This document shows, in pieces, positions 3,427 to 18,773 of a DNA stretch of 64,000 bases; position 1 is the first letter of the stretch; every line of letters starts with the position of its first letter. Origin of the DNA: an uncultured archaeon (GTDB lineage Archaea > Thermoplasmatota > Penumbrarchaeia > JASLWR01); NCBI GenBank assembly GCA_964342815.1, contig CAYFHS010000001.1, positions 243,849 through 307,848 of the forward strand, written 5' to 3'. A program made the translations under genes and the position numbers. A model generated the notes under the pieces. The model worked only from the letters and a program-made list of their open reading frames with translations, made no database searches and was not told where the DNA came from.

Positions 3427-4428
3427 TTATTCTATTGGCTCGGCCTTACTGGCTGCGATCAGCACGGTTCCCACGTTCATTGGAAACGAAGCGATCTCGT
3501 TCTTTTTGAGATTGTAGGTATTGCCGTCCTCCGACATGAAATCTCCGGTGTCCTCGATTATCCTCACCATTATCGAGGCCGCCCTTCCCGGATTAAGGTT
3601 GTTTTCCACAATGTTGGGGGTAGAATCCCGTGGTAACGATTCGTGATCTTTTGCCAATGACGGACTCCCGTTTTCATGCACATTGGCCAAATCGTTCACC
3701 TCGATCTCCGGGGCAGAAGGCATCTCGTCAGGCTCAACGGGATCCGGCCCTACTTCTATGTCACCTTCACCCAGTTGTTCCTTTTCTGCGTATTCCTCAT
3801 AGGGTTCGATAAAACTATTGTCCCGGGCTTCATCGTTCTCCTCGGGAGCTACCGCTTTTTCCTTAGTTCGTCCCCCCTCAAAAAAATCCGGGGGAAACTC
3901 TTCATCCAATTCCGACGGCATATCAATATCGCCCATGGCCGAGGAAGGCTCCATTACGTAGGCAGCTCCCCTGATGCTGTCTCCGATTGTTAAAAGGTTC
4001 TTTCCCTCGGGATCAGTCTCCATAAGATCGATAATCTCCTTCATCATTCCGGAATCCACTTCGGATTGATTCATTATTGTTCTTTTGGATTTAAGGACGA
4101 GAAAGACCATTGCCGAATACAGATTCCTCTCCTCCGGGACTAGGCGTGCAAGGTTCGGCTCGCGACCGTCGACCTTGTGGTTTACAAGGGTAAGAATCTT
4201 CCGCAGACGGCTTAAAAAAATATCCGACAAGCTGGCTTTGGCCGTTTTCCACTTCCGGTAGCTCCTCTCTACCTCTACTTCGCCCCGTTGTTTTCCCTGC
4301 CATAAACCCTCGAGCATGTCAAGGTGCCGCTTCGCTGATGTGAAAAAATCGTCTTCGAGCTTTGCCAGGGTCCGGTCGGACTTCTCCTTGCTGAGAGTAT
4401 CCCGGATGTCTTTTTCGACCTTGGTCAT
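3427..4428 (-). CDS. DNA replication factor GINS (Gins15/51-type) with long acidic linker
   Basis: N-terminal helical A-domain (LAKLEDDFF...RLRKIL...LVPEERNLY) and C-terminal B-domain (VRIIEDTGDFMSEDGNTYNLKKNEIASFP...KAEPI). Confidence 0.75.
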   Translation of the reverse strand: MTKVEKDIRDTLSKEKSDRTLAKLEDDFFTSAKRHLDMLEGLWQGKQRGEVEVERSYRKWKTAKASLSDIFLSRLRKILTLVNHKVDGREPNLARLVPEERNLYSAMVFLVLKSKRTIMNQSEVDSGMMKEIIDLMETDPEGKNLLTIGDSIRGAAYVMEPSSAMGDIDMPSELDEEFPPDFFEGGRTKEKAVAPEENDEARDNSFIEPYEEYAEKEQLGEGDIEVGPDPVEPDEMPSAPEIEVNDLANVHENGSPSLAKDHESLPRDSTPNIVENNLNPGRAASIMVRIIEDTGDFMSEDGNTYNLKKNEIASFPMNVGTVLIAASKAEPIE

Positions 4429-4524
4429 TATCTCAATTATTTCGACTTCGATAAATTAAATTTGTTGTTAAATTAATGATAATTGGAATTGCGTTTTCTG
4501 TGTTCGTTGGTCCACTGTAATAGA

Positions 4525-5448
4525 TCAAATCACGGGTCTCGGCAGAAGTCCCGCCCTCTCCGCTATCTCCGGTACCTTCTCCTCCCACATGATGGCCATG
4601 ATATGGGCTCCCGCCACGCCCTCGATCTTCTGTAGCCGCTCCAGCGTTTCGATAGCAATATTGAGACCTTCCGCCTTTTTGTCGCTTGCCGCCTTGAGCC
4701 TTTCTATTATCTCGTTCGGGACGTCCACTCCGGATACGAACCTCTGCATGTATCTCGCGGCGCCAACGGATTTGACCGGGATGACCCCTGCCATTATCTT
4801 CGCCTTCTTATGGAGCCCCGCCGCCCTTACCTCTTTCATCTTGTCCTCGAACTTGTCTATGTCGAATATCCCCTGGGTCTGGATGAAATCCGCACCTGCA
4901 ACGATCTTCTTCGCCAATCGTGGGATCCTCACGTCAATCGGTTCGCTGAATGGGCTCCAGACTGCGCCGATATGGAGTTTCGGAGAAATCTTTATCTCAT
5001 CCCCGTTGCAGAATTTGCCCTCGTCCCGCATGTTCTTGACCATCTGGAGAAGCTGCATGGAATCCAGGTCATAGACTCCCTTTGATCCGGGATGGTTCCC
5101 CAGGGTCTGGTGATCTCCGGTAAGGCATAACAGGTTCGGCACTCCAAGCGCACCGGCGCCAAGTATATCGCTCTGCATCGCAATGCGGTTTCGGTCCCGG
5201 ACCGTCATTTGCATCACCGGCTCCAGTCCTTCTCGTATCAGTAAAGCGGCCGTAGCTAGAGAGGAAATCCGGACTACCGCGGTCTGGTTGTCGGTGATGT
5301 TTGCTGCGTCTACGGCTCCCTTCAAGTGCCCGATATTTTTTATCACTCCCTCTATTCCGCAGTGTTTCGGCGGTCCCAGTTCACCGGTCACAGCGAAGTT
5401 ACCTTTGGCCATTACCTTTTCCAACCGTCCATCAGAATTGAACACCAT
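4525..5448 (-). CDS. metF: Methylenetetrahydrofolate reductase, catalytic subunit
   Basis: ELGPPK, ANITDNQTAVVRISS, QMTVRDRNRIAMQSD, LCLTGDH, KKIVAGADFIQTQ motifs. Confidence 0.95.
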   Translation of the reverse strand: MVFNSDGRLEKVMAKGNFAVTGELGPPKHCGIEGVIKNIGHLKGAVDAANITDNQTAVVRISSLATAALLIREGLEPVMQMTVRDRNRIAMQSDILGAGALGVPNLLCLTGDHQTLGNHPGSKGVYDLDSMQLLQMVKNMRDEGKFCNGDEIKISPKLHIGAVWSPFSEPIDVRIPRLAKKIVAGADFIQTQGIFDIDKFEDKMKEVRAAGLHKKAKIMAGVIPVKSVGAARYMQRFVSGVDVPNEIIERLKAASDKKAEGLNIAIETLERLQKIEGVAGAHIMAIMWEEKVPEIAERAGLLPRPVI

Positions 5449-6137
5449 TACGCATCACCCTCCTGCTCTATTACGAGATCTTCCCTGACTATCTTTCGGG
5501 GTCCTTTATGACCGGCCGCTCGCCAATCGTTAGGGGGTTGGATCTCCTCAAACTTCTTCTCATCCCCACGTTCCCTGAGTCTTTCGAATATAAGATACCA
5601 GGCGCAGTCTATGTCCTTGTCCACCTCACATTTCCCGTCGGACGTAGTTCCTCCGCACGGGCCATTGAGTAGGCTCTTGGAACACCTCGCCACCGGGCAT
5701 ATACCACCGGTGAGATGTAAACGACAACTACCGCAGGCACGACAGTTCTCCACCCATATCCCCTGTTCTTCCGGCATTCCCATGAATGTCGTGTTCAGGG
5801 CCGGGACGATAATGTTGTCAGGGAACATGCCAGCAATAGTCTGTACGCCTATGCCGCAGGCCATGGATAATACCACGTCATGGGATTCGATTTCTGTTTT
5901 TATTGCATCCACGAACTCCTTCTCGCACTGCCTTTCTATGGTATTCTCATCGAAAGTCATTTCCGCATCATCCATTTTGCATTTTATTCGCAGTGCTGAA
6001 GATAGAATACCTACTTCTTTTTCACCACCTGTAGAACATACTGTAACGCAGGTTCCACATCCCAAGACCAGGACCTTTTCATACTTCTCAAGCATGTTCA
6101 TTATCTCTTCTACAGGTTTTCTTTCCGCTACTATCAA
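5448..6137 (-). CDS. metV: MTHFR small Fe-S/Zn subunit MetV
   Basis: GCGTCVTVC, CEKEF, ACGIG, CRACGSCRLHLTGGICPVARCSKSLLNGPCGG...CEV...CAW; overlaps metF and mvhD. Confidence 0.92.
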   Translation of the reverse strand: MIVAERKPVEEIMNMLEKYEKVLVLGCGTCVTVCSTGGEKEVGILSSALRIKCKMDDAEMTFDENTIERQCEKEFVDAIKTEIESHDVVLSMACGIGVQTIAGMFPDNIIVPALNTTFMGMPEEQGIWVENCRACGSCRLHLTGGICPVARCSKSLLNGPCGGTTSDGKCEVDKDIDCAWYLIFERLRERGDEKKFEEIQPPNDWRAAGHKGPRKIVREDLVIEQEGDA

Positions 6138-6568
6138 TTTTTCACCTTACCTTTTAGATTAATGGGGGAAGGACCTAGTTGTTTTATCTTCTCCGTCATC
6201 TCTAACGCTACTTGGGCGAACCTGGGACCAGCCGAGGTAGACATGTTGTACATCTCCAAACGATCACCTCCGATCCCAAGCTCTTCCAATAATTTCTTCG
6301 CGTATTGTACCCGTTTTTTAGCACGATAGTTACCCTCGATAAAATGACAACTCCCCTCTTCACATCCTGCTACATAAACGCCGTCCGCACCGTCTTCGAA
6401 CGCTCTCAATAGGTAGAGAATATCTATCTTTCCACTGCATGGTAACCGAATTATCTTGATATTGGCCGGATATTTCAATCTCATAGTACCCGCAGTATCC
6501 GCGGCCCCGTAAGCGCAGTAGTGACAGCAGTAAGCAATGATCTTGGGCTCGAAGTCCTTACCGCTCAT
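6134..6568 (-). CDS. mvhD: MvhD [2Fe-2S] subunit
   Basis: YCCHYCAYGAAD, RLPCSGK, GADGVYVAGCEEGSCHF; likely ATG at 6568 overlapping the upstream stop (ATGA). Confidence 0.95.
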   Translation of the reverse strand: MSGKDFEPKIIAYCCHYCAYGAADTAGTMRLKYPANIKIIRLPCSGKIDILYLLRAFEDGADGVYVAGCEEGSCHFIEGNYRAKKRVQYAKKLLEELGIGGDRLEMYNMSTSAGPRFAQVALEMTEKIKQLGPSPINLKGKVKN

Positions 6569-9500
6569 TTTATCCCCTCCGCCAGGATTCCGTCGCATTG
6601 GGCCAATATCTGGTTATCCTTATAGTGTTGTAATTGAATGGCCTTGGCTGGGCACTCGCCTACACAGATGCCGCATCCCTGACATTCTGCAGCAATGATC
6701 TGTGCAACACCCTCTTCATTGATGCTCGGCACATTATATGGGCACACTCGGACGCATGTTAGGCATCCTGCGCACAGATCTTTTTCTACAACGGTAATCG
6801 AGCCACCTATTTCCAGGTTATCTTTGGATAGTATGGATCCCACTCTTGCTGCGGCACCACTTGCCTGAGCCACCGTATCGGGTATGTCCTTGGGTCCCTG
6901 ACAGCAACCTGCAAGGAAAATACCACTGGTAAACGTATCGATAGGTCTTAATTTCGGATGGGCCTCCATCATAAACCCGTCCGCACTTCGTGATATCCTG
7001 AGGAGGTTTGCCATTTCTCCCGAGCCCTCACGGGGTACAATACCTGAAGCCAGCACTACCAGGTCCGCCTCGATATCAGATTGTCCTGCGGCCTTGACCA
7101 CAAGTTTACCATTATCTTTTATAACTTCAATCTCGTCGGACAATTGCCTTCTCCTATAATGAACTCCCTCCTCTTGAACCCTGACGTAAAACTCCTCGAA
7201 ACCCTTGCCAAAGGCACGCACGTCAGTATAATAAATCGTAACATCGGAATCGGGCATTTTTTCTCTCACGAGGTGTGCCTGTTTTGCCGTGTACATACAG
7301 CACACCCTGGAACAATGCTCATTTCCCGCCCCATCCCTGTCTCTCGACCCTACACATTGTATGAAAACCACTTTTTCGGGCTCCTTCCCGTTAATTTCTA
7401 TGTGTCCGCCTGTGGGGCCGGAAGCGGATACTAACCGTTCAAACTCGATGCCGGATATCACATTCTTGAGCTGATCGTATCCATATTCGGGTAACGATGC
7501 GGCATCGAAGAGATCAAACCCTGTTGCAACTACAATCGATCCCACATCAACCTCAATCATCTCTTCATTCATATTATGGTCAATCGCATCAGCCTCGCAG
7601 ACGGCTACACATTCATAACATTCCACGCAACCACCGCAATCCAAGCACCTTCTTGCTTCTTTAATGGCCTCTTCCAGGGAATAACCCAGCTCAACCTCCT
7701 GGAAATTGTTCTTCCTTTTATTGAGGGGAAGCATTCTCATTGGGATTTTCTTCCTCTTTTTTACATTTTCCACGGGAGGTTTGAAAACTGGCAGCATCTT
7801 ATCCCTGCCTTCTGTCAAATCAATTCCGTTGATATACCTATCGATGGATTCTGCCACTCTTTTTCCTGCCCCTATCGCTTCAATGATCGTGCCTGAACCC
7901 AATATTGCATCTCCGCCGGAAAAGACTCCCTTTACACTCGTCTCCAATGTAACCGGATCTACCTTTATAATACCTGTACGGGTTGTTTCAATTTTGAAAT
8001 CATCGGAAATCTCATCAAGAGCCACCTCCTGACCGATGGCATATATCAGAGAATCAACTTCCATAGTATATTCAGAGCCAGGTATCGGTAGTGGTTTTCT
8101 TCTACCGGTTTTATCTACATCCCCCAATTCCATTTTTACGCATTCGATAGCCTTGATCCGTCCATTTTCACTGATAAATTTTGTGGGGACAGTTAAAAAT
8201 TCCAATTTTACGCCTTCCTCAATGGTTTCATCAATTTCCCATTCGGGCTCGGCAGGCATTTCTTCTCTAGAACGACGATAGAGGATTTTAACATCTCCAG
8301 AGCCCAATCTCAAACATGATCTAGCGGTATCCAGGGCTGCGTTACCTCCTCCTATAACAGCCACTCTATTACCTATCTTGGGATAGGCTTCTTTTAATCC
8401 GCTCAACTTTATGGCACCCACAGGACATATCGCTGCACATTTGCCGCACCCTCTACACAATTCTTCCAAAATGTATGGGTTTTTCTTTCTGTCCGGTTTG
8501 ACGTCATTATCAGGTCTCCTCATATCAACAATCGTTTCATAGGGACACTCTTCCATACATAATCCGCAACCAAAACAGATTTCCGAACTTATTGATGCTA
8601 TCGGAGTTGTTTTTATTACCCCTAGATTAAGGTCTTTTAAAAATTCAATCGACTGGAATACTCCTTCCAATGACTCGGTCTCCAGGCCCGATTTTTTACC
8701 TTTTTGTGCACCTATAGCTAGGAAAACTGCCCTGTACCCTCTTTCCATGATCTCTTTGATGGTAATCTCTCTACCCACCTTCATATTCAGAAATATTCGA
8801 ATTCCAAGATTGGTTACATCGGTGATTTCTTTTTCAAGTATTTCCTTGGGCAATCTGAAGGTAGGAATTCCAAATCTCATCATGCCGCCCAGGACGGGCA
8901 TTTCCTCGAATATCGATACGTGGTATCCCAAAAGGGCCAAATCATTAGCGGCTGTAAGCCCTGCAGGTCCTCCACCTATTATGGCCACCTTCTCCGCCCG
9001 AGTATCGATTGGAGGGGTCTTGGCAATAGGAATCTCAAGTTCGAAATCCCCAACAAATCTTTTTATTTGAGCGATTCCTACCGGTTCGTCTATTTCTTTC
9101 CTGGTGCAGGCATTCTCACATGGCCTGTGGCAGACTCTTCCGCAAATCGATGGGAAGGGTAAATGTTCTTTTATTACCTTTAGGGCCTGATAGAACTTGC
9201 CTCTACTAACCAATGATACATACCCGGGGGCCCCGATTTGCGCCGGACATACACTCTTGCAGGGTTGTAAACCTTCCCTACTAATGGTATATTTTAATGG
9301 CACGGCCTGAGGAAATGGAACCGATATTGCATTTCTGTCATCCAAACCGAAATTAAACTCATTAGGAATGGCCACCGGACAGACCTTGGAACATTCTCCG
9401 CAGCCTATACACTTTTCCCAATCTACGTAAGTGGGTTTTTTCCTGATCTTTACATGGAAGTTACCTACATAACCATCGACGTTTTCAACCTCTGCACAGG

Positions 9501-10134
9501 TTATAAGTTCAATGTTAGGGTGCCTCCCCACATCCACCATTTTCGGAGTCAGAATACAAGCAGAACAATCTAGTGTTGGGAAGGTTTTATCCAACTGCGA
9601 CATTCTTCCACCCACACTGGGAGTTTTTTCCACCAAATATGTTTTATAGCCCATGTCCGCAATGTCCAACGCTGTCTGGATACCGGCGATTCCACCTCCG
9701 ATCACCAGCGCATTCGATGTCACACCAACCGATGTCATTTCCAGGGGCTCCAGATGGATTGCGCGGGCTACCGCGCCCCTGATCAGCTCAATTGCTTTTT
9801 CGGTCCCTATGGACTTGTCCCCGTGTACCCAGGAGCACTGTTCTCGGATATTGGCCATCTCGAATTGAAATGGATTCATTCCTGCCTCCTTACAGAGAGC
9901 ACGGAACGTAGGCTCATGCATCCTTGGGGAACACGAGGCTACGACGACACGATCCAGTTTCTCCTCACTAATGTCTTTTTTGATCATCTCCTGACCTGGA
10001 TCTGAGCACATGTACTTGTATTCCCTGCACAGCACCACTTTAGACAATGTACCTATCTCATTAACTACCTTGGGCACGTCGACCGTAGATGTGATATTGA
10101 TACCGCAGTCGCAGACATATACGCCAACCTTCAT
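6565..10134 (-). CDS. hdrA: HdrA-family flavoprotein with inserted GltD/NfnB-like NAD(P)H-binding module (HdrL-like), 1189 aa
   Basis: VGVYVCDCG, VVVASCSPRMHEPTF, GGGIAG, DKTFPTLDCSAC; insert FPSICGRVC, GGGPAG, GGGNAA...YRR; C-terminal QCVGSRD, CSRVCC, ferredoxin. Confidence 0.95.
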   Translation of the reverse strand: MKVGVYVCDCGINITSTVDVPKVVNEIGTLSKVVLCREYKYMCSDPGQEMIKKDISEEKLDRVVVASCSPRMHEPTFRALCKEAGMNPFQFEMANIREQCSWVHGDKSIGTEKAIELIRGAVARAIHLEPLEMTSVGVTSNALVIGGGIAGIQTALDIADMGYKTYLVEKTPSVGGRMSQLDKTFPTLDCSACILTPKMVDVGRHPNIELITCAEVENVDGYVGNFHVKIRKKPTYVDWEKCIGCGECSKVCPVAIPNEFNFGLDDRNAISVPFPQAVPLKYTISREGLQPCKSVCPAQIGAPGYVSLVSRGKFYQALKVIKEHLPFPSICGRVCHRPCENACTRKEIDEPVGIAQIKRFVGDFELEIPIAKTPPIDTRAEKVAIIGGGPAGLTAANDLALLGYHVSIFEEMPVLGGMMRFGIPTFRLPKEILEKEITDVTNLGIRIFLNMKVGREITIKEIMERGYRAVFLAIGAQKGKKSGLETESLEGVFQSIEFLKDLNLGVIKTTPIASISSEICFGCGLCMEECPYETIVDMRRPDNDVKPDRKKNPYILEELCRGCGKCAAICPVGAIKLSGLKEAYPKIGNRVAVIGGGNAALDTARSCLRLGSGDVKILYRRSREEMPAEPEWEIDETIEEGVKLEFLTVPTKFISENGRIKAIECVKMELGDVDKTGRRKPLPIPGSEYTMEVDSLIYAIGQEVALDEISDDFKIETTRTGIIKVDPVTLETSVKGVFSGGDAILGSGTIIEAIGAGKRVAESIDRYINGIDLTEGRDKMLPVFKPPVENVKKRKKIPMRMLPLNKRKNNFQEVELGYSLEEAIKEARRCLDCGGCVECYECVAVCEADAIDHNMNEEMIEVDVGSIVVATGFDLFDAASLPEYGYDQLKNVISGIEFERLVSASGPTGGHIEINGKEPEKVVFIQCVGSRDRDGAGNEHCSRVCCMYTAKQAHLVREKMPDSDVTIYYTDVRAFGKGFEEFYVRVQEEGVHYRRRQLSDEIEVIKDNGKLVVKAAGQSDIEADLVVLASGIVPREGSGEMANLLRISRSADGFMMEAHPKLRPIDTFTSGIFLAGCCQGPKDIPDTVAQASGAAARVGSILSKDNLEIGGSITVVEKDLCAGCLTCVRVCPYNVPSINEEGVAQIIAAECQGCGICVGECPAKAIQLQHYKDNQILAQCDGILAEGIK

Positions 10135-12159
10135 CTAGACCACCTCCAAGGCTGCTCCGACCATGGCTTTCAATTGTTCCAGCTTGAATCCTTTGACAAC
10201 GATGCCTTCTTTCGGGCATGTCGCCTGACATACCCCGCATCCCTGACAGGCCACTTCGGTAACTTCAACAGTTTTCTTTATCTCCCTGTTCCTAATGTAT
10301 TCGATCAAAGTAAGTGCATTATAAGGACACGGGTCGATACAATAAGCGCATCCGTCACAGTTCTTGTCAATTACAAATGAAATATGTGGTGCTAATTCCA
10401 CTTTGCCCTGGTCAAGAGGTATCAACGCCCTTGCTGCGGCTCCGGATGCCTGGGCCACCGTGTCCGGTATGTCCTTTGGCGATTGGGCACATCCTGCTAA
10501 AAATAAGCCAGGCGATATCGTATCCACTGGACGCAGTTTGGGATGGGCCTCCAGTAAGAAACCATCGGCACTCTGGGACAGTTTCAACACCTTGGCAACA
10601 CCCTCACTTGTGCTCAGTCGGGGGATAATGGCTGTCGCAAGGACCACGAGATCCGCTTCCAAGGGGGGAGTGTCTCCGCTTTTCACAATGAGCGGACCGT
10701 TTTCAGCACCGGGCGTTTTAGGCACGACCTCAAGGGGATCCTCCAGTTCCCTATGGATATAGACAACGCCTTCATCCTTGACCCGATTGTAAAATTCTTC
10801 AAAACCTTTTCCGAAGGCCCTGACATCCGTATATAGCACCGTTGTATCCGCATCCTGCAACCTCTCTCGAACAAGATGGGCATGCTTTGCAGTGTACATG
10901 CAGCATACTCTTGAACAGTATGAATTGCCCCCTTCGCACCTTTCTCTGGAGCCCACACATTGGATGAACACCACCTTTTCCGGGCGTTTCCCATCAATCA
11001 GTATCTCTCCCCCGGTTGGGCCGGAAGAAGAACAAATACGCTCGAACTCCAATCCCGTTATCACATTTTTATTAGAACCATATCCATACTGTAGATTTTG
11101 AGAGGGATCGTAAAGGTCAAAACCAGTAGCTACGATAATAGTCCCTACATCCAGTTCGATCTCTTCGTCTTTCAGATTGAAATCGATAGCATTTGTGGGA
11201 CAGGCTTCCTGGCATTTGGGTGCCTTTCCGCATTTGCCTCTCGTTACCATCAAACAACGATCTTTATCTATGGTAAATTTCAAAGGAACGGCCTGGGGAA
11301 ACGGTAGATAGGCCGAACCTCGCATACCGATATTCGCATCAAATTCGTTCGGAATCCTTCCCTTGAGGCGGCACGCTTCCGCACATTCTCCGCAACCGAC
11401 ACATTTCTCAATATCGATGTATCTCGATTTCTTTTTTATTTTAACAATAAAGTTGCCTATGTATCCCCCCACTTCCGTTACTTCAGCATAAGTGAGAAGT
11501 TCGATATTCGGGTGTCGGGCCGCATCAACCATTTTCGGGGTCAATATACATGCGGAACAATCCAGTGTTGGGAATGTTTTGTCCAGTTGCGCCATTCTCC
11601 CGCCTATGGACGGGGATTGTTCTACCAAATATACTTTAAAACCGTTTTCAGCAATATCAAGCGCGACCTGGATGCCAGCAATCCCGCCACCAATAACCAA
11701 AGCATTGGGTATGACCTCCACTTCTTTCTTCTCTAACGGCTCCAGTAACCGTGCTTTGGCCACTGCCATCCGTATTAAATCTTCAGCTTTTTCGGTAGCC
11801 TCTCGAGGCGTCTTATTGTGTACCCAGGAACAGTGCTCACGGATGTTAGTCATCTCGAAAAGATATGGATTAAGGCCTGCTTCCGACAGTGTGATTCTAA
11901 ATGTGGGCTCATGCATCCTGGGGGAGCACGAGGCTACAATAACCCGAGTCAAATCCATTTCTTTGATATCATCCTTTATTAGTTTTTGGCCTGGCTCGGA
12001 GCACATGTATTTATAAAAACGGCTCACGGCAACATCAGGAAGAGTTCCCGTATATTCCGCGACCTTTTTCACATCGACAACCGCCCCGATGTTTATGCCA
12101 CATTCACATACATAGACCCCAATTCTCACTCTGCTTGCGTTGTTAGCTCCATCCGACAT
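10135..12159 (-). CDS. hdrA: Heterodisulfide reductase subunit A (canonical length)
   Basis: RIGVYVCECG, SCSPRMHE, DKTFPTLDCSAC, QCVGSR...CSRVCC, terminal CDGCAYC/CQGCGVC; likely ATG at 12159. Confidence 0.96.
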   Translation of the reverse strand: MSDGANNASRVRIGVYVCECGINIGAVVDVKKVAEYTGTLPDVAVSRFYKYMCSEPGQKLIKDDIKEMDLTRVIVASCSPRMHEPTFRITLSEAGLNPYLFEMTNIREHCSWVHNKTPREATEKAEDLIRMAVAKARLLEPLEKKEVEVIPNALVIGGGIAGIQVALDIAENGFKVYLVEQSPSIGGRMAQLDKTFPTLDCSACILTPKMVDAARHPNIELLTYAEVTEVGGYIGNFIVKIKKKSRYIDIEKCVGCGECAEACRLKGRIPNEFDANIGMRGSAYLPFPQAVPLKFTIDKDRCLMVTRGKCGKAPKCQEACPTNAIDFNLKDEEIELDVGTIIVATGFDLYDPSQNLQYGYGSNKNVITGLEFERICSSSGPTGGEILIDGKRPEKVVFIQCVGSRERCEGGNSYCSRVCCMYTAKHAHLVRERLQDADTTVLYTDVRAFGKGFEEFYNRVKDEGVVYIHRELEDPLEVVPKTPGAENGPLIVKSGDTPPLEADLVVLATAIIPRLSTSEGVAKVLKLSQSADGFLLEAHPKLRPVDTISPGLFLAGCAQSPKDIPDTVAQASGAAARALIPLDQGKVELAPHISFVIDKNCDGCAYCIDPCPYNALTLIEYIRNREIKKTVEVTEVACQGCGVCQATCPKEGIVVKGFKLEQLKAMVGAALEVV

Positions 12160-12495
12160 CAGGATACCTTCATGATTAGGAGTTTCCACTCATCATTGTA
12201 ATAAAGCTTCAGTAGGCAAATATTACATCATCGACCGGGGGTCTTATGTTCCCTACTTACATATTATCCCCGAGAATTATGTATTAAGTGCCATAATTTT
12301 TGTCAGAAATTATACAATAATCCAGAATCTGGTTGTTGTATATCTGATCACCAATCACAATACTATTAATTCTATTAATATCTTTTGAGATTTTTATTTT
12401 CTCACTTCGTTAGGGTGAAAAACGTTTTAAGAGAGGAAGAATGAGGTAAAAAATTGACTAGAGGTTCAATGAACTTAGATTAAAGAAGAACTTTA

Positions 12496-12660
12496 TCAAA
12501 ATGCTGCGTAAGACCTAGGGCCCCACATCTTCAGGGCTCCAACCATTTCATTCACTATTTTGGTAAACTTCGGCCTCTAGACTGCTGACACCAATTCCAC
12601 CCTGAATCTCTCACGCTAAGGGCTAAAATCCTTCAGCATCAGTTACATGGTCTCCGTCTG
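12496..12660 (-). pseudogene. mvhD: Vestigial 3' fragment of an mvhD
   Basis: Manual translation LMLKDFSP*RERFRVELVSAV*RPKFTKIVNEMVGALKMWGP matches the MvhD C-terminus (ERFRLEWVSASEGPKF...LGP pattern); two in-frame stops. Confidence 0.7.
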
Positions 12661-12668
12661 TTGTGTAC

Positions 12669-13094
12669 TCATCTTTCCTTATTACTTACAGGTGAAGGAC
12701 CCAATTTTCTGATTTTCTCGGTCATATCCACAGCTACTTTTGCAAACTTGGGTCCCGAAGATGTGGAAATATAATGCATTTCTATCCTCTCGCTTTCCAA
12801 GCCGATTTCCACTAATAATTTTTTTAGATGTTCAACACGCCTTTTCGCCCGGAAATTGCCCTCTATAAAGTGGCAACTACCTTCCTCACATCCCGCCACA
12901 TAAACGCCGTCCGCACCATCCTCGAATGCTTTCAAAATATAGAGGATGTCTATTTTTCCGCTGCACGGTATCCTTATTATCTTGACATTGGTGGGATATT
13001 GTATCCTCATTGTGCCCGCCATATCTGCAGCTCCGTATGCGCAATAATGACAGCAGAAGGCAATAATCTTTGGCTCGAATCCCGAATCCGTCAT
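12669..13094 (-). CDS. mvhD: MvhD [2Fe-2S] subunit (second copy)
   Basis: FCCHYCAYGAAD, RIPCSGK, AGCEEGSCHF. Confidence 0.95.
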   Translation of the reverse strand: MTDSGFEPKIIAFCCHYCAYGAADMAGTMRIQYPTNVKIIRIPCSGKIDILYILKAFEDGADGVYVAGCEEGSCHFIEGNFRAKRRVEHLKKLLVEIGLESERIEMHYISTSSGPKFAKVAVDMTEKIRKLGPSPVSNKER

Positions 13095-16000
13095 TCTCCA
13101 ACCTCTTTCAGTATAGCATTACATTGACCTAATAATTGATCATCTCGAAAATGCTGCAATTGAATTGCTTTGGCCGGACATTCACTTACACATATGCCAC
13201 ATCCCTGACATTCCGCCTCATCTATCCGGGCGACTCCTTCCTTCGAGATCTTCGGTGCGGAGTAAGGGCATACTCTTATACAAGTAAGGCAAGTAGCACA
13301 TTTATCCGGATCGACCACTGAAATAGTACCGCCTATTTCCAGCGACTCTTTGGAGAGAATCGTACCTGCCCTTGCTGCCGCGGCACTCGCCTGGGCGATG
13401 CTCTCATCAATGAACTTTGGAGAATGGGCCAAACCCGCGAGGAAGACACCGGGGGTAGCAAAGTCCACAGGGCGTAATTTCACATGGGCCTCTAAAAAGA
13501 ATCCGTCCTTCGTCATGGGCAGTTTCAACATCTGGGAGAGTTCTATTGCTCCATCCTGAGGGAGTATTGCATTACTTAACACTAACAGGTCCGGTATAAG
13601 TGTTATCTCTCTATTAAGTATTGGTTCACGAATAGATACCTGCAATCCTTCATCATCGCTCACTATAGGAAGGTTCTCATCATCATAACGTATGAAAATG
13701 ATACCCTTTTCAGCTGCTTCCCTGTAATATTTTTCTCTGAATCCATAGGTTCGAATATCCTTGTAGAGCACGTAGATGTTGGTGTCGGGACTCTGTTCCT
13801 TGATCTTCAACGCATTCTTTATGGCACCGCTGCAACATACCCTGCTGCAGTAGGTTCTCTCCTCTGTGCGTGAACCCACACATTGGATCATGACCACATT
13901 TTCTGAGTTAAATGTATTTTTTACTAGTTTCTCTTCGAGTTCCTTCCTCGTACAGACATTTTTATTTACTCCATAGAGATATTCGCTGGGAATATATTCT
14001 TTTCCTCCGATTGCTAAGATAATTATACCATGATCGAATTCGTTCTCCGCCGCATCATTTTGAATGATAGTTGTCTTAAAGTTACCAATAACACCATCGA
14101 TATTTTTTATCTTTACCCCTGTGGAAACATGGATCAATTCGTTCTCATGTACACGGGAAATTATATTTCGTAAAAACTCTTGGGGATCTTCACCACCTAA
14201 CATGTAATGTGTATTTAGTGCTGCACCCCCCAACTCATTTTCTCGTTCAATTAGAAATGTTTCATATCCCTGTGCCGATAATTCCAGAGCAGCAGTCATA
14301 CCGGTTATGCCGCCCCCGATAACCAATCCTCTTGGGACAATGTCAATTTTTCTTTTCATTAGGGGATGATTTAATAAGGATTTTGAAACTGCAACTCTGA
14401 CGAGATCCATGGCTTTCCTTGTAGCCTCTTCCGGTTCGGTATTGTGTACCCAGGAACATTGTTCTCTTATATTCGCCATTTCAAATAAATAAGGGTTGAG
14501 ACCGGCTTCCTGAATCGTATTTTGAAATAACGGCTCGTGGGTTCGCGGAGTACACGCGGAAACGACGACTCGGTTCAGGTCATTTTCTTCAATAATATCC
14601 ATCATCTTTTTCTGTGTATCTTGGGAGCAGGTATAAATGAACTCCTCGGCCTTGACCACATTAGGTAACGTTTTTGCATATTCGACAACCGCAGGTACAT
14701 CTACCACCGAGCCGATATTGATTCCGCAATTACAAACGAAGACCCCTATCCGAGGCTTCTCGGCGGTGATATCCTTCTCGGGAGGGTATTCTTTAACAGA
14801 AACAAGGCTATTCCTTTCAGATGAAATAATACTCGATGCTTTGGCGGCGGCCCCGGAAGCTTCAATAACGGTCTCGGGAATATTCTTCGGACTCGAAAAA
14901 GCACCGCAAACATATATGCCTGGTCGAGAGCTTGTCATAGGAGAAAAATATTTAGTTGAGCAGAATCCGGACTCGTTCAGATCTATACCAAGTATATCGC
15001 TTATCGCGTCATTCGACCTCGGTGGTATCAATCCCGTTGACAGAACCACCATTTCAAAGACTTCTTGTTTCATCTCCTCGTTTTCCAAATAACTCAAAAT
15101 AAGATTGTTAGTGTGGGCATCTTCTTCGATGTTGGGAATCCTGCAGCGAGTAAACTTAATACCGTATTTTTCTTTTGCCCTGATGTAATAGTCATCGAAC
15201 TCCTTTCCGAAAGCTCTGATGTCCATGAAAAAGATATGTGTTTCAAGCCCCTCCACGTGTTCTTGAGCCAGAAGTGCTTCTTTCATCGCTGCCATGCAGC
15301 ATACGCTGGAACAGTATTCATTACTTCGTTCATCGCGCGAACCGACGCATTGTAAAAACGCAATTTTTCGAGGCTCCTTCTCATCCGACAGTCGTCGGAC
15401 CTTTCCCTGATATGGGCCTGAAGCGCTCAATATCCGTTCGAATTGAAGATTTGTGATCACATTCGGGAATCTTCTATAACCATATTCGTTATCTATATCC
15501 GGTTCGTAAAGGTCAAAACCAGTAGATACGACTATGGAACCAACATTCAGTTCCAGTTCCGTAGGGACCATCTCATGGTCAACGGCCTCCGCTTCGCAGC
15601 TCTTGACACATTCTAAACATTCCGAACAGATACCACAGCTCAAACAACGGTTTGCTTCGGCAATTGCCTCTTCTTCGGTTAATCCCAATTCTACTTCCTC
15701 AAAACTGGAAAGTCTTTCCTCCAGTGTGATGGTCCTTGCCTTCCTTCGTTTCTCGATTTGCACGTCTTCGATATCTACCTGACTGCTTATATCGGGTAAA
15801 TCCTCACTCTTCAAGCTCTCCTCCAAATTCTCAGCGCCCTGGAGGAATTTGTCTATGGTAATGGCCGCCCTTTCACCGGCTGCAATGGCATCAATGACCG
15901 TTGATGGACCGGTAATGAAATCCCCTCCTGCAAAAACTCCCGGCGTATTGGTCATGAGTGTTGTTGGATTCACTGCCAACCGTTCCCATTTAGTTATCTC

Positions 16001-17515
16001 GAATTGGGCCTCCTCGGGAAGGAACGATATATCGGGAGCCTGACTCACGGCCGATATAACCATATCAACATCCACCACGAATTCCGAGCCTTCAATTGGG
16101 ATTGGCCTTCTCCTTCCACTCTTATCCGGTTCCCCTAACTTCATTTTTATACATTCTATTTTGGACACTGTCTCTCCATTATCAGATAAGATCCGAGTGG
16201 GGCTGCATAGAAAATGGAACTTCACTCCTTCCTCACCGGCCTCTTCGACCTCCTTTGGATCCACAGGCATCTCATTTCTTGAGCGTCTATATAATAGAAA
16301 TACCTCATTAATCCCCATTCTCCTTGCGCTTCTGGCACAATCCATTGCAGTATTTCCCCCTCCTATCACCGCCACCCTGTCCTTTAGCTCGACGGGCTCC
16401 CCTAAATTAATCTTCCTCATGAATGTGACGCCGTGATATACTCCTTTCAAATCTTCCCCTTCAATTCCAAGTTTAAAGGGGTTGTGGGCTCCCGCTGCAA
16501 TAAAAATGGCATCGTAATCTTTTTGAAGTCCCTGAAGTTTGATCTTCTCCCCTATAGGCGTGTCCAACTTAACCTCCACACCCAGACTGATTATATTATC
16601 GATTTCCCTGCGAAGGACCTCCCTTGGTAGACGATAGGATGGAATTCCCACCCGCATCATGCCACCTAATACCGGAAGTGCTTCGAATACCGTTGTCTGG
16701 TAGCCTTCCACCGTGAGATTATATGCGGCGGTAAGACCTGCGGGACCACCGCCGATGACAGCTACCTTTTGAGGTTTCTTCTCCTTTTTTTTCGGGAGAA
16801 TGGGCTCGTCCTCGAAAGTTGGTTCCAAGTCCGCTAAAAAACGTTTTAATGCACTGATGGCCAAGGGATCGTCCACTTCCCCCCGTTTACAGTTCAGTTC
16901 ACAGGGATGGGTGCAAATCCTCCCGCATATCCCGGGAAAAGGATGGGCTTTCTTCACAAGTTCGAGAGCCTCACGGAACTTTCTCTCCCTGATTAAAGCT
17001 ACATAACCCTGTACGTTCGTCTTGGTGGGACAGGCAACTTTGCATGGGGATTTACCCCGCTTTTGGATGGTATATTTTAACGGGACCGCCTGAGGGAAGG
17101 GTACATAGATCGCGTTTTTATTGGCGAGTTCCATATCAAACTCACTGATGATTTCCACGGGACAGTTCTTAGCACACTCACCACATCCTATGCATCTACT
17201 CTCATCTACATAGCGGGGATGCCTTAAAACCGTCACTTTGAAATTGCCCTCTTTCCCTTCTACGCAACTAATTTCGGATAATGTGAGAAGTTCGATATTT
17301 GGGTGTCTTGCGACCTCAACGAGCTTTGGTGAGAGGATACACATGGAGCAGTCGTTTGTGGGGAAAGTCTTATCCAGCTGGGCCATTCTACCCCCGATGG
17401 CCGGTGATCTTTCAACGAGGAATACCTTAAAACCGCTATTAGCCAGGTCCAATGCGCTTTGCATTCCCCCGATACCCCCGCCGATAACTAGAACCGCACC
17501 TATCTTTTCATCCAT
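13091..17515 (-). CDS. hdrA: HdrL-type large HdrA with GltD-like NAD(P)H module and tandem HdrA domains (~1474 aa)
   Basis: GGGIGG, DKTFPTNDCSMC; insert FPGICGRIC, GGGPAG, GGGNTA...YRR; then QCVGSRD, a second HdrA unit RIGVFVCNCG...SACTPRTHE and a terminal ferredoxin; likely ATG at 17515. Confidence 0.95.
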   Translation of the reverse strand: MDEKIGAVLVIGGGIGGMQSALDLANSGFKVFLVERSPAIGGRMAQLDKTFPTNDCSMCILSPKLVEVARHPNIELLTLSEISCVEGKEGNFKVTVLRHPRYVDESRCIGCGECAKNCPVEIISEFDMELANKNAIYVPFPQAVPLKYTIQKRGKSPCKVACPTKTNVQGYVALIRERKFREALELVKKAHPFPGICGRICTHPCELNCKRGEVDDPLAISALKRFLADLEPTFEDEPILPKKKEKKPQKVAVIGGGPAGLTAAYNLTVEGYQTTVFEALPVLGGMMRVGIPSYRLPREVLRREIDNIISLGVEVKLDTPIGEKIKLQGLQKDYDAIFIAAGAHNPFKLGIEGEDLKGVYHGVTFMRKINLGEPVELKDRVAVIGGGNTAMDCARSARRMGINEVFLLYRRSRNEMPVDPKEVEEAGEEGVKFHFLCSPTRILSDNGETVSKIECIKMKLGEPDKSGRRRPIPIEGSEFVVDVDMVISAVSQAPDISFLPEEAQFEITKWERLAVNPTTLMTNTPGVFAGGDFITGPSTVIDAIAAGERAAITIDKFLQGAENLEESLKSEDLPDISSQVDIEDVQIEKRRKARTITLEERLSSFEEVELGLTEEEAIAEANRCLSCGICSECLECVKSCEAEAVDHEMVPTELELNVGSIVVSTGFDLYEPDIDNEYGYRRFPNVITNLQFERILSASGPYQGKVRRLSDEKEPRKIAFLQCVGSRDERSNEYCSSVCCMAAMKEALLAQEHVEGLETHIFFMDIRAFGKEFDDYYIRAKEKYGIKFTRCRIPNIEEDAHTNNLILSYLENEEMKQEVFEMVVLSTGLIPPRSNDAISDILGIDLNESGFCSTKYFSPMTSSRPGIYVCGAFSSPKNIPETVIEASGAAAKASSIISSERNSLVSVKEYPPEKDITAEKPRIGVFVCNCGINIGSVVDVPAVVEYAKTLPNVVKAEEFIYTCSQDTQKKMMDIIEENDLNRVVVSACTPRTHEPLFQNTIQEAGLNPYLFEMANIREQCSWVHNTEPEEATRKAMDLVRVAVSKSLLNHPLMKRKIDIVPRGLVIGGGITGMTAALELSAQGYETFLIERENELGGAALNTHYMLGGEDPQEFLRNIISRVHENELIHVSTGVKIKNIDGVIGNFKTTIIQNDAAENEFDHGIIILAIGGKEYIPSEYLYGVNKNVCTRKELEEKLVKNTFNSENVVMIQCVGSRTEERTYCSRVCCSGAIKNALKIKEQSPDTNIYVLYKDIRTYGFREKYYREAAEKGIIFIRYDDENLPIVSDDEGLQVSIREPILNREITLIPDLLVLSNAILPQDGAIELSQMLKLPMTKDGFFLEAHVKLRPVDFATPGVFLAGLAHSPKFIDESIAQASAAAARAGTILSKESLEIGGTISVVDPDKCATCLTCIRVCPYSAPKISKEGVARIDEAECQGCGICVSECPAKAIQLQHFRDDQLLGQCNAILKEVGE

Positions 17516-17516
17516 T

Positions 17517-18421
17517 CTATGCACTCACTTTCCTTAAGAACTCGATTTTACGAAATAATGGCTTCACTTTCACATGTTTCTTGTTGACTGCCAGATCCCT
17601 ACGCGGGTGAAATCCCATGACCAGACCCAGGAGTTAAGTATAATATAGAACTGGTATATCATATTTGACATCGGCCTTTGCACCGATGGCAGGGTGATAT
17701 TCGTAATAGATAATATCACCGAACGAGCGGATCACAATCATAACATCCGTATTTGCCGCCTTGACATGATCGAGCTTCTGTTTCACCATATTGGTGGACG
17801 TGTCCTCCAAAAACGCCAATATACCGCTGCAGCAGCACTGAAGTCTATCCCGGTAAGAGACAGGCTCGGCTCCGGTGATCTCGATGAGTTTGTCCAGGCT
17901 CTCGGGAAAGTAAGGACTGTCGAAATGATCGAACAAATAGGTTGGCTTGATGTAATGCCATCCGTAATGAGGGGCGATCTTAATACCTGCCAGGGGATGC
18001 GTGAGCGCCTCTTTCACCTTGTCGAAACCGATCTCCTTAAAAGGAAGCGGATAACATTCTTTACCTTCACATTACCCTTGGAAACATGCCCCAGGTCGGA
18101 CAATTCCTCGTTGACCTTCTTTAACTCCTCTTCGCGGTCTCCGTCCGAGTAGTGCTTTGCCACTTTCGTGAGGTGACCCGAGCAGGCTCTGCAGAGGGTC
18201 ACAAGCTATTCCGCTTCTGCGAGACCGAAATTGCGTGCCGCCACTGCCATGGCGGGATGATGATGTACGCCATCTATAGGAAAACCACGGTATGAAAAAC
18301 CGAGGATGTCCACGATTTCTATCCCCAGTTTCGAGGCGATTTTTCTTGTGGAAAGTTCATAGTTGGAATCCCTGACGGATACCGTACCCCTCAAGAAAAG
18401 GGCGATCCCGTGTTTAATCAT
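17517..18421 (-). pseudogene. hdrB: Degraded hdrB
   Basis: HdrB homology throughout, but TAG near 18206, a frameshift near 18040, TAA near 17634 (YYT*LLGL), and conserved Cys lost (LRG, SYRG, HYGW, IRSFG). Confidence 0.9.
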
Positions 18422-18424
18422 CGT

Positions 18425-18640
18425 TGCCAATCCCCTTGATCGCGTCATGAATGCCTGCTTTTTCATTACTTCCTTTGGTTCCGAGATCTTGAATTCAGGT
18501 TACGACATTCCTTTCTTTGCCCTTACAGTATTTTCGAACTCACTGACCTCTCGTATGCGGCCGAACTTTTCCAGCAGGTCAACGCCGGCTCCCATTGCCT
18601 TTGGTAGATATCCTTCCTTGGGGATGAACTTTATTATAAC
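18425..18640 (-). pseudogene. hdrC: 3' remnant of hdrC
   Basis: KEGYLPKAMGAGVDLLEKFGRIREVSEFEN..RAKKGMS*PEFKISEPKEV resembles an HdrC C-terminus directly upstream of hdrB; the 5' Fe-S part is absent. Confidence 0.6.
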
Positions 18641-18773
18641 GATATATTTTTCTATATAAGCGTGATTAGTGTGTTGGTTATCGGTTATATATTCAATATT
18701 CCTATTTTTAGAAGCTAAAGGTATTAACACGATTCGATTCAGGCATATATTTGCGCTAAAGGAGAATACATAG

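Follow-up and report, generated by a model that had tools for sequence, protein, structure and literature searches.

A putative Hdr-type methylenetetrahydrofolate reductase locus with tandem HdrA proteins in an uncultured marine Thermoplasmatota archaeon

Results

A MetVF locus with three HdrA proteins in two probable units

The 64,000-nucleotide stretch analyzed here (the window; positions 243,849 to 307,848 of contig CAYFHS010000001.1, assembly GCA_964342815.1) comes from an uncultured marine archaeon of the Thermoplasmatota and carries genes for three HdrA-type flavoproteins, two MvhD proteins, and the methylene-tetrahydrofolate (methylene-H4F) reductase subunits MetV and MetF. The interpretation that we favor, with somewhat better than even confidence, is that these genes form two adjacent units in an organism with a bacterial-type, H4F-dependent Wood-Ljungdahl pathway. 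Unit B (hdrA, hdrA-Nfn, mvhD2, metV, and metF) would encode an Hdr-type methylene-H4F reductase, and unit A (hdrL and mvhD1, preceded by an hdrC/hdrB relic) a second NADPH-type HdrA module. A reading of the DNA made from its letters alone (the sequence-only reading) had proposed an archaeal Hdr-type MetVF reductase at this locus, and the analysis supports that proposal.

Coordinates are positions in the window, and gene identities were assigned by Pfam and NCBIfam profile searches. The genome is a metagenome-assembled genome (MAG) of 4.35 Mb in 116 contigs, 89% complete with 3% contamination. In the order of transcription, all on the minus strand, the features are as follows (aa, amino acids).

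hdrC relic, 18407-18619, minus strand: 65% identity to the HdrC of contig C4 by tblastn, no open frame remaining
hdrB relic (pseudogene), 17523-18448, minus strand: recognized by six-frame reading and tblastn
hdrL, 13091-17515, minus strand: fused asymmetric double HdrA, composed of HdrA, a GltD/NfnB insert, and a second HdrA (Pfam/NCBIfam)
mvhD1, 12669-13094, minus strand: [2Fe-2S] MvhD/FlpD of the MetVF-linked type (PF02662, 1.5e-52)
AT-rich intergenic gap of 480 bp, 12190-12668, minus strand: from the sequence
hdrA, 10135-12189, minus strand: complete canonical HdrA of 684 aa (772 bits, full length, to 8rvu_a)
hdrA-Nfn, 6565-10134, minus strand: HdrA of 1189 aa with an NfnB/GltD-like insert (Pfam/NCBIfam, cysteine map)
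mvhD2, 6134-6568, minus strand: MvhD/FlpD (PF02662, 8.8e-50)
metV, 5448-6137, minus strand: iron-sulfur subunit of MetVF (PF12225, 3.2e-36)
metF, 4525-5448, minus strand: methylenetetrahydrofolate reductase (PF02219, 6.7e-38)
Junction hdrL/mvhD1, minus strand: ATGA overlap
Junction hdrA/hdrA-Nfn, minus strand: TAGATG, abutting
Junction hdrA-Nfn/mvhD2, minus strand: ATGA overlap
Junction mvhD2/metV, minus strand: TTGA overlap
Junction metV/metF, minus strand: TAATG, one-base overlap

Every gene named in the sequence-only reading was recovered by the profile searches. The junctions also agree with the coupled run from hdrA to metF that it had described: hdrA, hdrA-Nfn, mvhD2, metV, and metF are translationally coupled via overlapping or abutting stop and start codons, and a GGAG-like box lies ahead of each of the five junctions. 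It had further placed hdrL-mvhD ahead of this run; the order held, and the 480-bp AT-rich gap lies between. This gap contains an oligo-T run and probably holds both a terminator for unit A and a promoter for unit B, with hdrL-mvhD1 probably forming a separate transcription unit. A scan of promoters and terminators with a sigma-70 model, in which archaeal promoters are not represented, gave no excess over shuffled sequences (27 vs 23 and 11 vs 12). A weak relic of an mvhD C-terminus was detected in the gap at 12517-12612 (minus strand), with 31% identity to residues 102-133 of MvhD1 and one in-frame stop; its tblastn E-value of 7e-4 refers to a tiny search space. This scrap may mark the seam of a duplication or insertion that yielded the two mvhD copies.

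Regarding the start codons, the open reading frame list begins hdrL at a GTG at 17524 (1477 aa); the ATG at 17515 gives 1474 aa, matches the N-termini of homologues, and is the likely true start. For the 684-aa HdrA, an ATG at 12159 may serve as an alternative, and the start of mvhD2 is assigned to the ATG at 6568, which overlaps the hdrA-Nfn stop codon. A gene for archaeal GINS was found downstream of metF by profile search.

Anatomy of the HdrA proteins

The HdrA modules were aligned with the inserts removed, together with Moorella-type and same-genus proteins, and every cysteine of the 684-aa HdrA was mapped. This protein matched the solved methanogen HdrA 8rvu_a end to end over all four domains, and it kept all its ligands: those in the N-terminal domain, Cys194 and Cys197 as a pair, eight cysteines each in the inserted and in the C-terminal ferredoxin domain, and the four-cysteine cluster in the thioredoxin-reductase domain. 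Nothing interrupts its inserted ferredoxin domain. The 1189-aa HdrA-Nfn likewise kept all canonical HdrA cluster ligands, with an NfnB-like FAD/NADPH module (aa 284-848, 7591-9285) splitting the inserted ferredoxin domain between its four-cysteine motifs. Within the module lies a further insert, about 80 aa long and of the 2x[4Fe-4S] type (aa 513-577, 8404-8598), which is common to proteins from a genome of the same genus (G001), from genomes G044 and G046, and from metagenome locus L111.

HdrL was found to have the make-up for which such proteins are named, a single polypeptide with HdrA and GltD-type NAD(P)H/FAD domains and an adjoining mvhD. Its NfnB/GltD-like insert lies at aa 153-656 (about 15557-17068). 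[quoted passage not shown] Judged from this alignment, HdrL is a predicted built-in heterodimer whose modules have lost complementary features, and the same complementarity has been described for the Moorella HdrA and for tandem and fused HdrAs of anaerobic methanotrophic archaea (ANME) (Chadwick et al., PMC9012536).

The four-cysteine cluster that touches HdrC in solved Hdr complexes was kept in all HdrA modules, and the E356/K409 flavin signature (M. thermolithotrophicus numbering) was present in 4/4 thioredoxin-reductase-like FAD modules. This Glu/Lys pair is given as a mark of the bifurcating HdrA flavin by Appel et al. 2021, in the form in which Kremp et al. quote them (PMC9430772).

The inserted modules carry an NADPH-type nucleotide motif

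The inserts of both large HdrAs aligned along the whole of NfnB and of the GltD domain of the Sporomusa Stn complex (8oh5), with E-values of 1e-101 to 1e-135. The aligned NfnB span took in its pair of [4Fe-4S] sites at the N-terminus and extended over both Rossmann folds and the YRR motif (4ylf_B, 5jca_L), in agreement with the NADPH-type motif that the sequence-only reading had pointed out in both proteins. The motif reads LLYRRSRNEMP in HdrL and ILYRRSREEMP in HdrA-Nfn, with YRRS where the second strand of the nucleotide-binding fold ends in both. The NADPH-binding NfnB proteins of Thermotoga and Pyrococcus have YRRT at the same position, and the collinear Moorella-type HdrA has CLES. According to the accounts of the Moorella-type enzyme in PMC5861303 and PMC9430772, it oxidizes NADH.

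Among 35 collected proteins of the HdrA-Nfn family, drawn from loci L026-L098, L099, L104, L111, L132, and L190-L197 and from the window, 20 had YRR and 15 had [CSA]LE. All archaeal proteins in the set, including 11/11 from Thermoplasmatota (the two window proteins among them), carried YRR; the [CSA]LE proteins were the Moorella type and 14 others, all bacterial. The motif type showed no strict link to the presence of hdrB in this small set. In a Rossmann fold, an acidic residue at this position usually excludes the 2'-phosphate, and an arginine pair binds it. NADPH is therefore the likely donor for both large HdrAs, since the YRR arginine pair stands in place of the acidic residue. An NfnA partner (PyrK-like, with [2Fe-2S] and FAD) was not found in the cluster; a PyrK-like gene is present in another operon, on contig C15.

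MetVF and a folate-type Wood-Ljungdahl pathway

metV and metF are adjacent (PF12225, PF02219), as in the core of the Hdr-type methylenetetrahydrofolate reductases (MTHFR), and directly upstream of metV lie mvhD2 and a large HdrA with a GltD/NfnB module, HdrA-Nfn. The metF gene is single-copy in the genome. Its product is 56-62% identical to MetF proteins of Bacillota, Desulfobacterota, and Chloroflexota (56% to the Moorella type). The closest MetF relatives are 93% and 88% identical, and the names given to the nearest MetF proteins point to Thermoplasmata or Thermoplasmatota. In a phylogenetic tree, the window MetF fell in a clade of five Thermoplasmatota that has full support and adjoins a Bacillota clade; the tree is unrooted and its deep nodes are weak, and therefore no donor or direction of transfer is claimed. 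MetV is 49% identical to the Moorella-type protein and has 13 cysteines that are invariant across 16 homologues; no solved structural relative was found for it. A prediction of a complex of MvhD2 with MetV and MetF, made from alignments, scored 0.27 against a mark of 0.32 and was used neither way. In the same-family genome G003 (contig C40:4624-11294), two divergent metV-metF pairs were observed about 4 kb apart on opposite strands; their MetF proteins are 83% and 42% identical to that of the window, and the 20 kb read there revealed neither an HdrA nor an MvhD gene.

The search for Wood-Ljungdahl genes suggested in the sequence-only reading recovered Fhs (formyl-H4F synthetase, 817 bits), FolD, MetF, and a bacterial-type fusion of carbon monoxide dehydrogenase with acetyl-CoA synthase (CODH/ACS). 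The latter is a single frame of 1373 aa, with Prismane/CODH joined to CODH_A_N, CdhC, and ACS_CODH_B_C, and is followed by two genes for corrinoid proteins of the CdhD family (contig C2:277777-284193, minus strand). Two pterin-binding proteins were also found. Neither Mch (PF02289) nor Mer (TIGR03555) gave a match in the 89%-complete genome. Because of Fhs, FolD, the fused CODH/ACS, the lack of Mch and Mer matches, and the bacterial-like MetF, the methyl branch is predicted to be folate-type, with methylene-H4F as the MetF substrate. The carrier had been left as H4F or tetrahydromethanopterin (H4MPT) in the sequence-only reading; the H4F part stood, and H4MPT was rejected on the MetF similarity, Fhs, FolD, the missing Mch match in the 89%-complete genome, and the CODH/ACS type.

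The only NiFe hydrogenase of the genome was found at C15:43061-56128, where the large and small subunits and a HycI protease are encoded beside two further mvhD genes. This is in line with the earlier remark that mvhA and mvhG are missing from the window, and the genome-wide search for them that had been proposed yielded subunits on C15 only, not with the window's Hdr genes. The C15 region, a second large soluble redox cluster, also contains a set of an HdrA fragment fused to NuoE with NuoF/NuoG-like genes, and AsrA/AsrB-like (PyrK-like) genes.

Concerning the habitat, one fifth to half of the sampled words from 4400-13200 of the window were present in marine or seawater metagenome runs from seven studies beyond the likely source, and three such runs were compared over 12000-19400. 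The marine occurrence of a strictly anaerobic-looking genome suggests anoxic water columns.

A decayed hdrCB pair at the locus and intact pairs elsewhere

The sequence-only reading had noted no functional HdrBC at the locus, and this was borne out: the hexameric set of the Moorella-type MTHFR includes hdrB and hdrC, and here the cluster contains only their relic. The hdrC relic keeps only the C-terminal third (about residues 140-203 of the intact HdrC on contig C4) and is without the N-terminal half with its two-cluster ferredoxin domain. The six-frame reading of the hdrB relic revealed in-frame stops and one frameshift near 18040, and the CCG-motif cysteines are replaced, for example by FSYRGFP at the expected CCG position; a 127-aa fragment still gave a weak CCG domain in the profile search. 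By tblastn, the hdrB relic is 64-70% identical to the intact C4 HdrB, split over two frames. It ends a few bases before the hdrL start, and hdrB is placed alike in relatives whose hdrC-hdrB-hdrL operon is intact.

Three other samples, including two that belong to separate studies, yielded contigs matching parts of the relic and of the gap without differences; these contigs are short and may derive from the same population. An assembly error as the cause of the lesions was considered unlikely, because the lesions are several and independent and because identical pieces occur in other samples. On its N-terminal side, the hdrC relic is truncated near the 3' end region of a plus-strand gene for a GT4-family glycosyltransferase (18774-20102), beyond which lie genes for surface proteins with PKD domains. 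The rearrangement that deleted the front of hdrC may have brought in this GT4/PKD block (18620-20102 region).

Elsewhere in the genome, at least two intact hdrC-hdrB pairs were found by matches to TIGR03288 and TIGR03290. On contig C4 (101060-109160, minus strand), hdrC and hdrB are followed by hdrA'::nuoE, nuoF, nuoG'::hdrA (1076 aa), and mvhD. On contig C41 (7100-13368, minus strand), they precede an hdrL::mvhD fusion, which encodes the third HdrL of the genome (1630 aa, collinear with the window HdrL at 49% identity, with a C-terminal MvhD). Further CCG proteins are encoded elsewhere. The sequence-only reading had counted against itself an intact hdrBC elsewhere that is co-expressed and co-purifies; the first half of this, intact copies, is what the genome contains.

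Comparison with other genomes

Among the best 80 MetF loci in the genome collection, 79 were bacterial. The arrangement was analyzed by open reading frame calling and BLAST with the window proteins at the 49 bacterial MetF loci for which 7 kb or more of upstream sequence was available. HdrA(+Nfn)-MvhD-MetVF occurred without HdrB in the locus at 10 and with HdrB at 7, the latter being Neomoorella stamsii and six others with the order hdrC-hdrB-hdrA(+Nfn, about 1490 aa)-mvhD-metV-metF. For plain HdrA-MvhD-MetVF, the counts were 9 loci without HdrB vs 2 with it. Three further HdrA(+Nfn) loci without hdrB were also without a detected mvhD. Among the nearest bacterial homologues, mostly Desulfobacterota, layouts that have no hdrB inside 10 kb thus outnumber those that do, and the HdrBC-less form put forward in the sequence-only reading is not specific to this archaeon.

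Within the Thermoplasmatota, MetF was found in 10/60 relatives. The same-genus genome G001 has hdrL (1543 aa)-mvhD-metV-metF, its contig ending just upstream, and class-level relatives have hdrC-hdrB-(hdrA)-hdrL-mvhD without metVF. A metagenome scan with the 684-aa HdrA gave nothing above 65% identity. The hdrA-hdrA::nfn tandem is also present on metagenome contig L111 (64% identity), which breaks off inside the second gene, and another metagenome contig has the hdrA/hdrA::nfn tandem in reverse order behind hdrCB.

The HdrL backbone is 66-70% identical to the C4 paralogue of the same genome, in which a NuoEFG-like NADH module, split over three genes, sits exactly at the position of the NfnB insert of HdrL. 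It looks as if the nucleotide-input module has been swapped at one fixed HdrA site. A wholesale recent import of a Moorella-type operon was dropped as an origin, as the paralogous C4 operon is the nearest relative (64-70%) of both the HdrL backbone and the hdrB relic; only MvhD, MetV, and MetF are closest to MetVF-linked bacterial genes. We conjecture that an hdrCB-hdrL-mvhD-metVF operon gained an hdrA-hdrA::nfn cassette by recombination in or near mvhD, an event that would have left the two mvhD copies and the scrap. An archaeal (Methanomassiliicoccus) Met homologue nested among bacteria has been described (Poudel et al., PMC6085437).

Discussion

A proposed electron path

In the mechanism that we propose for unit B, NADPH would reduce the FAD in the NfnB-like insert module of the 1189-aa HdrA, and the [4Fe-4S] clusters of the module and the split inserted ferredoxin domain would carry the electrons to the HdrA flavin. 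From there they would pass via the C-terminal ferredoxin domain into MvhD's [2Fe-2S] cluster, on to the clusters of MetV, and finally to the flavin of MetF, where methylene-H4F would be reduced (about -200 mV). The 684-aa HdrA would be the dimer partner, with its uninterrupted inserted ferredoxin domain as the likely ferredoxin site. The downhill step from NADPH (about -320 mV) to methylene-H4F would be coupled to the reduction of ferredoxin (potentials from PMC5861303), and the system could run in reverse, as confurcation, when methyl-H4F is oxidized. Unit A would correspond to the fused form found in Moorella and Desulfobacterium, in this archaeon with the loss of the HdrBC that belonged to it.

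Gene content, translational coupling, the anatomy of domains and ligands, the type of motif, the pathway context, and the homologues are what the sequences show. We infer that the proteins form a complex, that it is specific for NADPH, that it has a ferredoxin branch and works without HdrBC, and the direction in which it catalyzes. Bifurcation is suggested by the conserved E/K flavin signature and the cofactor ligands.

Several points weigh against this interpretation. The E/K signature is a correlate of bifurcation, not proof of it. In a canonical HdrA, the high-potential branch exits via the cluster that contacts HdrC; without HdrBC this exit would be unoccupied, and the wiring from MvhD to MetV is a guess. 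The hdrCB pairs on C4 and C41 and the further CCG proteins could serve in trans, and HdrB-less HdrA(+Nfn)-MvhD-MetVF clusters are common in bacteria, so the arrangement is neither archaeon-specific nor new. In class-level relatives, hdrL normally stands behind intact hdrCB without metVF, and unit A may accordingly be an unrelated Hdr operon. Finally, the absence of Mch and Mer is not certain in a MAG that is 89% complete with 3% contamination.

Does unit A serve MetVF?

Unit A could be unrelated to MetVF, as a decaying or independent NADPH:acceptor oxidoreductase that is a neighbor by chance, a possibility that we regard as real but clearly the less probable one. It would account for the gap with its oligo-T run between the units, for the hdrCB-(hdrA)-hdrL-mvhD operons without metVF in relatives, and for the finding that the HdrL backbone, like the hdrB relic, has its closest counterpart in the genome's own C4 operon. 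The MvhD proteins speak against it. The two share 73% identity. With the single MvhD of G001 that is linked to MetVF, MvhD1 shares 77% and MvhD2 82%; MvhD1 is 64% identical to its Moorella-type counterpart, and MvhD2 68-74% to bacterial MetVF-linked MvhDs. To the other five of the seven MvhD domains in the genome, both are only 41-49% identical (MvhD1 43-49%), and they are co-orthologues of the MetVF-linked MvhD. In addition, hdrL-mvhD lies directly ahead of metVF in G001, and the window hdrL is fully open with all ligands kept. Because its MvhD duplicates the MetVF-linked MvhD, unit A probably feeds the same MetVF.

Is HdrBC supplied in trans?

A second alternative is a Moorella-like hexamer for which HdrB and HdrC are supplied in trans from C4 or C41, the local relic being a redundant copy in the course of loss. 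We judge this rather unlikely, although the material for it exists: two intact hdrC-hdrB pairs, a relic 64-70% identical to the C4 HdrB, an HdrC-contacting cluster kept by all HdrA modules, and class-level relatives that retain hdrCB ahead of hdrL. Moreover, Poudel et al. 2018 (PMC6085437) point out that metFV-mvhD frequently stands apart from hdrABC. On the other hand, each intact pair stands in its own operon with its own HdrA and MvhD (the NuoEF-type HdrA on C4, the HdrL-MvhD fusion on C41), many bacterial HdrA-MvhD-MetVF loci are without hdrB within 10 kb, and the loss of the cis copy argues that HdrBC is dispensable for the neighboring genes. Independence of the cluster from HdrBC is unproven.

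The strongest form of our interpretation is a self-sufficient, HdrBC-free enzyme, in which a heterodimer of HdrA and HdrA-Nfn with MvhD and MetVF would split the electrons of NADPH between methylene-H4F and ferredoxin by bifurcation. The ferredoxin site would lie in the 684-aa HdrA, at its uninterrupted inserted domain, and MvhD-MetV would replace the HdrBC arm. We put this strongest form forward tentatively, as a bold idea with no better prospects than the supply of HdrBC in trans.

Energy coupling or simple electron transfer?

It was also considered that HdrA and MvhD might act as a non-bifurcating wire, merely shuttling electrons between NADPH and MetVF with no ferredoxin branch or energy coupling. 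Electron transfer from NADPH to methylene-H4F is exergonic by itself, no co-reduction of ferredoxin or NAD(P)+ by the Hdr-type enzyme was seen in Sporomusa ovata extracts (PMC9430772), and the second acceptor of the Moorella enzyme is still unidentified (PMC9430772, PMC5861303). Against this, a single MetF subunit is enough for the plain reaction in many bacteria. The locus studied here has preserved about 3350 HdrA residues intact, along with about 20 predicted clusters and five sites for flavin, with the bifurcation-type E/K signature in every module and a free inserted ferredoxin domain in one partner. We therefore consider a mere wire unlikely. Least probable by far is that MetF acts on methylene-H4MPT and the cluster replaces Mer in an archaeal-type pathway, as proposed for MetF of ANME-1 and other uncultured archaea (Chadwick et al. 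2022, PMC9012536); the lack of a Mer match would fit, but MetF groups with the bacterial H4F enzymes, Fhs and FolD are present, Mch was not found, and CODH/ACS is of the bacterial fused type.

Relation to known systems

The closest known system to the proposed two-unit reductase is the MetFV-HdrABC-MvhD complex (Hdr-type or type IV MTHFR) of Moorella thermoacetica, encoded in the order hdrC-hdrB-hdrA(large)-mvhD-metV-metF (Mock et al. 2014, as reviewed in PMC5861303 and PMC9430772). HdrL is collinear over its full length with the HdrA of Neomoorella stamsii (47.7% identity), with the same GltD/NfnB insert and the same two-module complementary build, and the MvhD, MetV, and MetF proteins are 64-68%, 49%, and 56% identical, respectively. 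In contrast to the Moorella type, the host of the window locus is an archaeon, hdrC and hdrB are pseudogene relics, two complete HdrAs and another MvhD stand between hdrL-mvhD and metVF, and the dinucleotide motif is the NADPH-like YRR instead of CLE. For the Moorella-type enzyme, reduction of methylene-H4F with reduced viologen has been described (PMC5861303). In Sporomusa ovata, HdrA and MetF are recovered in pull-downs with MetV and MvhD (PMC9430772).

The HdrL of Desulfobacterium autotrophicum, for which the HdrL/MvhD pairing was described in 2009, and related Desulfobacterota clusters (PMC2702500; loci L026, L032, L037, L050, L053, and L065 in our comparison) share with the window an HdrA/GltD fusion of about 1480 aa, mvhD, and metV-metF, with no hdrB nearby, and some of these HdrLs also share the YRR motif. 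Unlike the window, these loci are bacterial and have a single HdrL, no HdrA/HdrA-Nfn tandem, and no hdrCB relic, and several encode selenoproteins.

Among archaea, HdrA9-11 of ANME-1 (PMC9012536) resemble HdrA-Nfn in being complete HdrAs with an NfnB-like insertion of about 500 aa in the inserted ferredoxin domain; orthology to these proteins is not claimed. Tandem HdrAs have been read as heterodimers (Chadwick et al. 2022, PMC9012536), and in 'Ca. Syntrophoarchaeum', archaeal MetFV adjoins HdrA and MvhD (PMC9012536). However, the HdrA-NfnB genes of ANME-1 are not clustered with metF, and the MetF of ANME-1 belongs to a different archaeal clade with proposed use of H4MPT, whereas the window fusion is coupled directly to bacterial-type MetVF and has the extra 2x[4Fe-4S] insert.

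Similarity along the full length of NfnB links the inserts with NfnAB/NfnSL (4ylf, 5jca) and with the GltD domain in Sporomusa Stn (8oh5), but the window module is internal to HdrA and no NfnA partner is encoded in the cluster; its electron partners should therefore be the HdrA clusters and not NfnA. The MvhADG-HdrABC complex of hydrogenotrophic methanogens (5odc, 8rvu) has the 684-aa HdrA as an end-to-end match and MvhD in common with the locus. It differs in that MvhA and MvhG are missing at the locus and HdrBC is only a relic; heterodisulfide metabolism is not expected here, and MetVF stands in place of the terminal reductase or donor.

Significance

Hdr-type MetFV complexes, HdrL, HdrA-NfnB fusions, and archaeal MetFV-HdrA-MvhD clusters are already published, and folate-type Wood-Ljungdahl genes are known in Thermoprofundales and other Thermoplasmatota (PMC6461988, PMC11287216). 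Particular to this locus are the tandem of two complete HdrAs, one with an Nfn insert, coupled directly to MvhD-MetVF; the second HdrL unit with decaying hdrCB; the two copies of a MetVF-type MvhD; and the extra 2x[4Fe-4S] insert in the Nfn module. In the open-access papers searched, we found no description of the HdrA/HdrA-Nfn-MvhD-MetVF coupling, an adjoining HdrL unit with decaying hdrCB, the YRR/CLE split, or the extra ferredoxin insert.

The locus bears on how methylene-H4F reduction is coupled to energy conservation. Characterization of the Moorella complex is only partial, and the Sporomusa enzyme was non-bifurcating in vitro. The locus provides natural variants for the HdrBC requirement (hdrCB decaying while the flavoproteins stay intact), for the choice of nucleotide (YRR and CLE forms inside one protein family), and for the roles of the HdrA protomers (one with the NADPH module, the other with a free ferredoxin domain). 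If the cluster does form a self-sufficient, HdrBC-free enzyme, the decaying hdrCB would be a natural experiment on the dispensability of HdrBC, and the second acceptor and the wiring of Hdr-type methylene-H4F reductases would be identified. The genome also documents a complete bacterial-type folate Wood-Ljungdahl gene set, including the fused CODH/ACS, in a marine Thermoplasmatota archaeon and adds to reports of acetogen-like metabolism in this phylum (PMC6461988, PMC11287216). The main value of the locus is as a test case for an open biochemical question.

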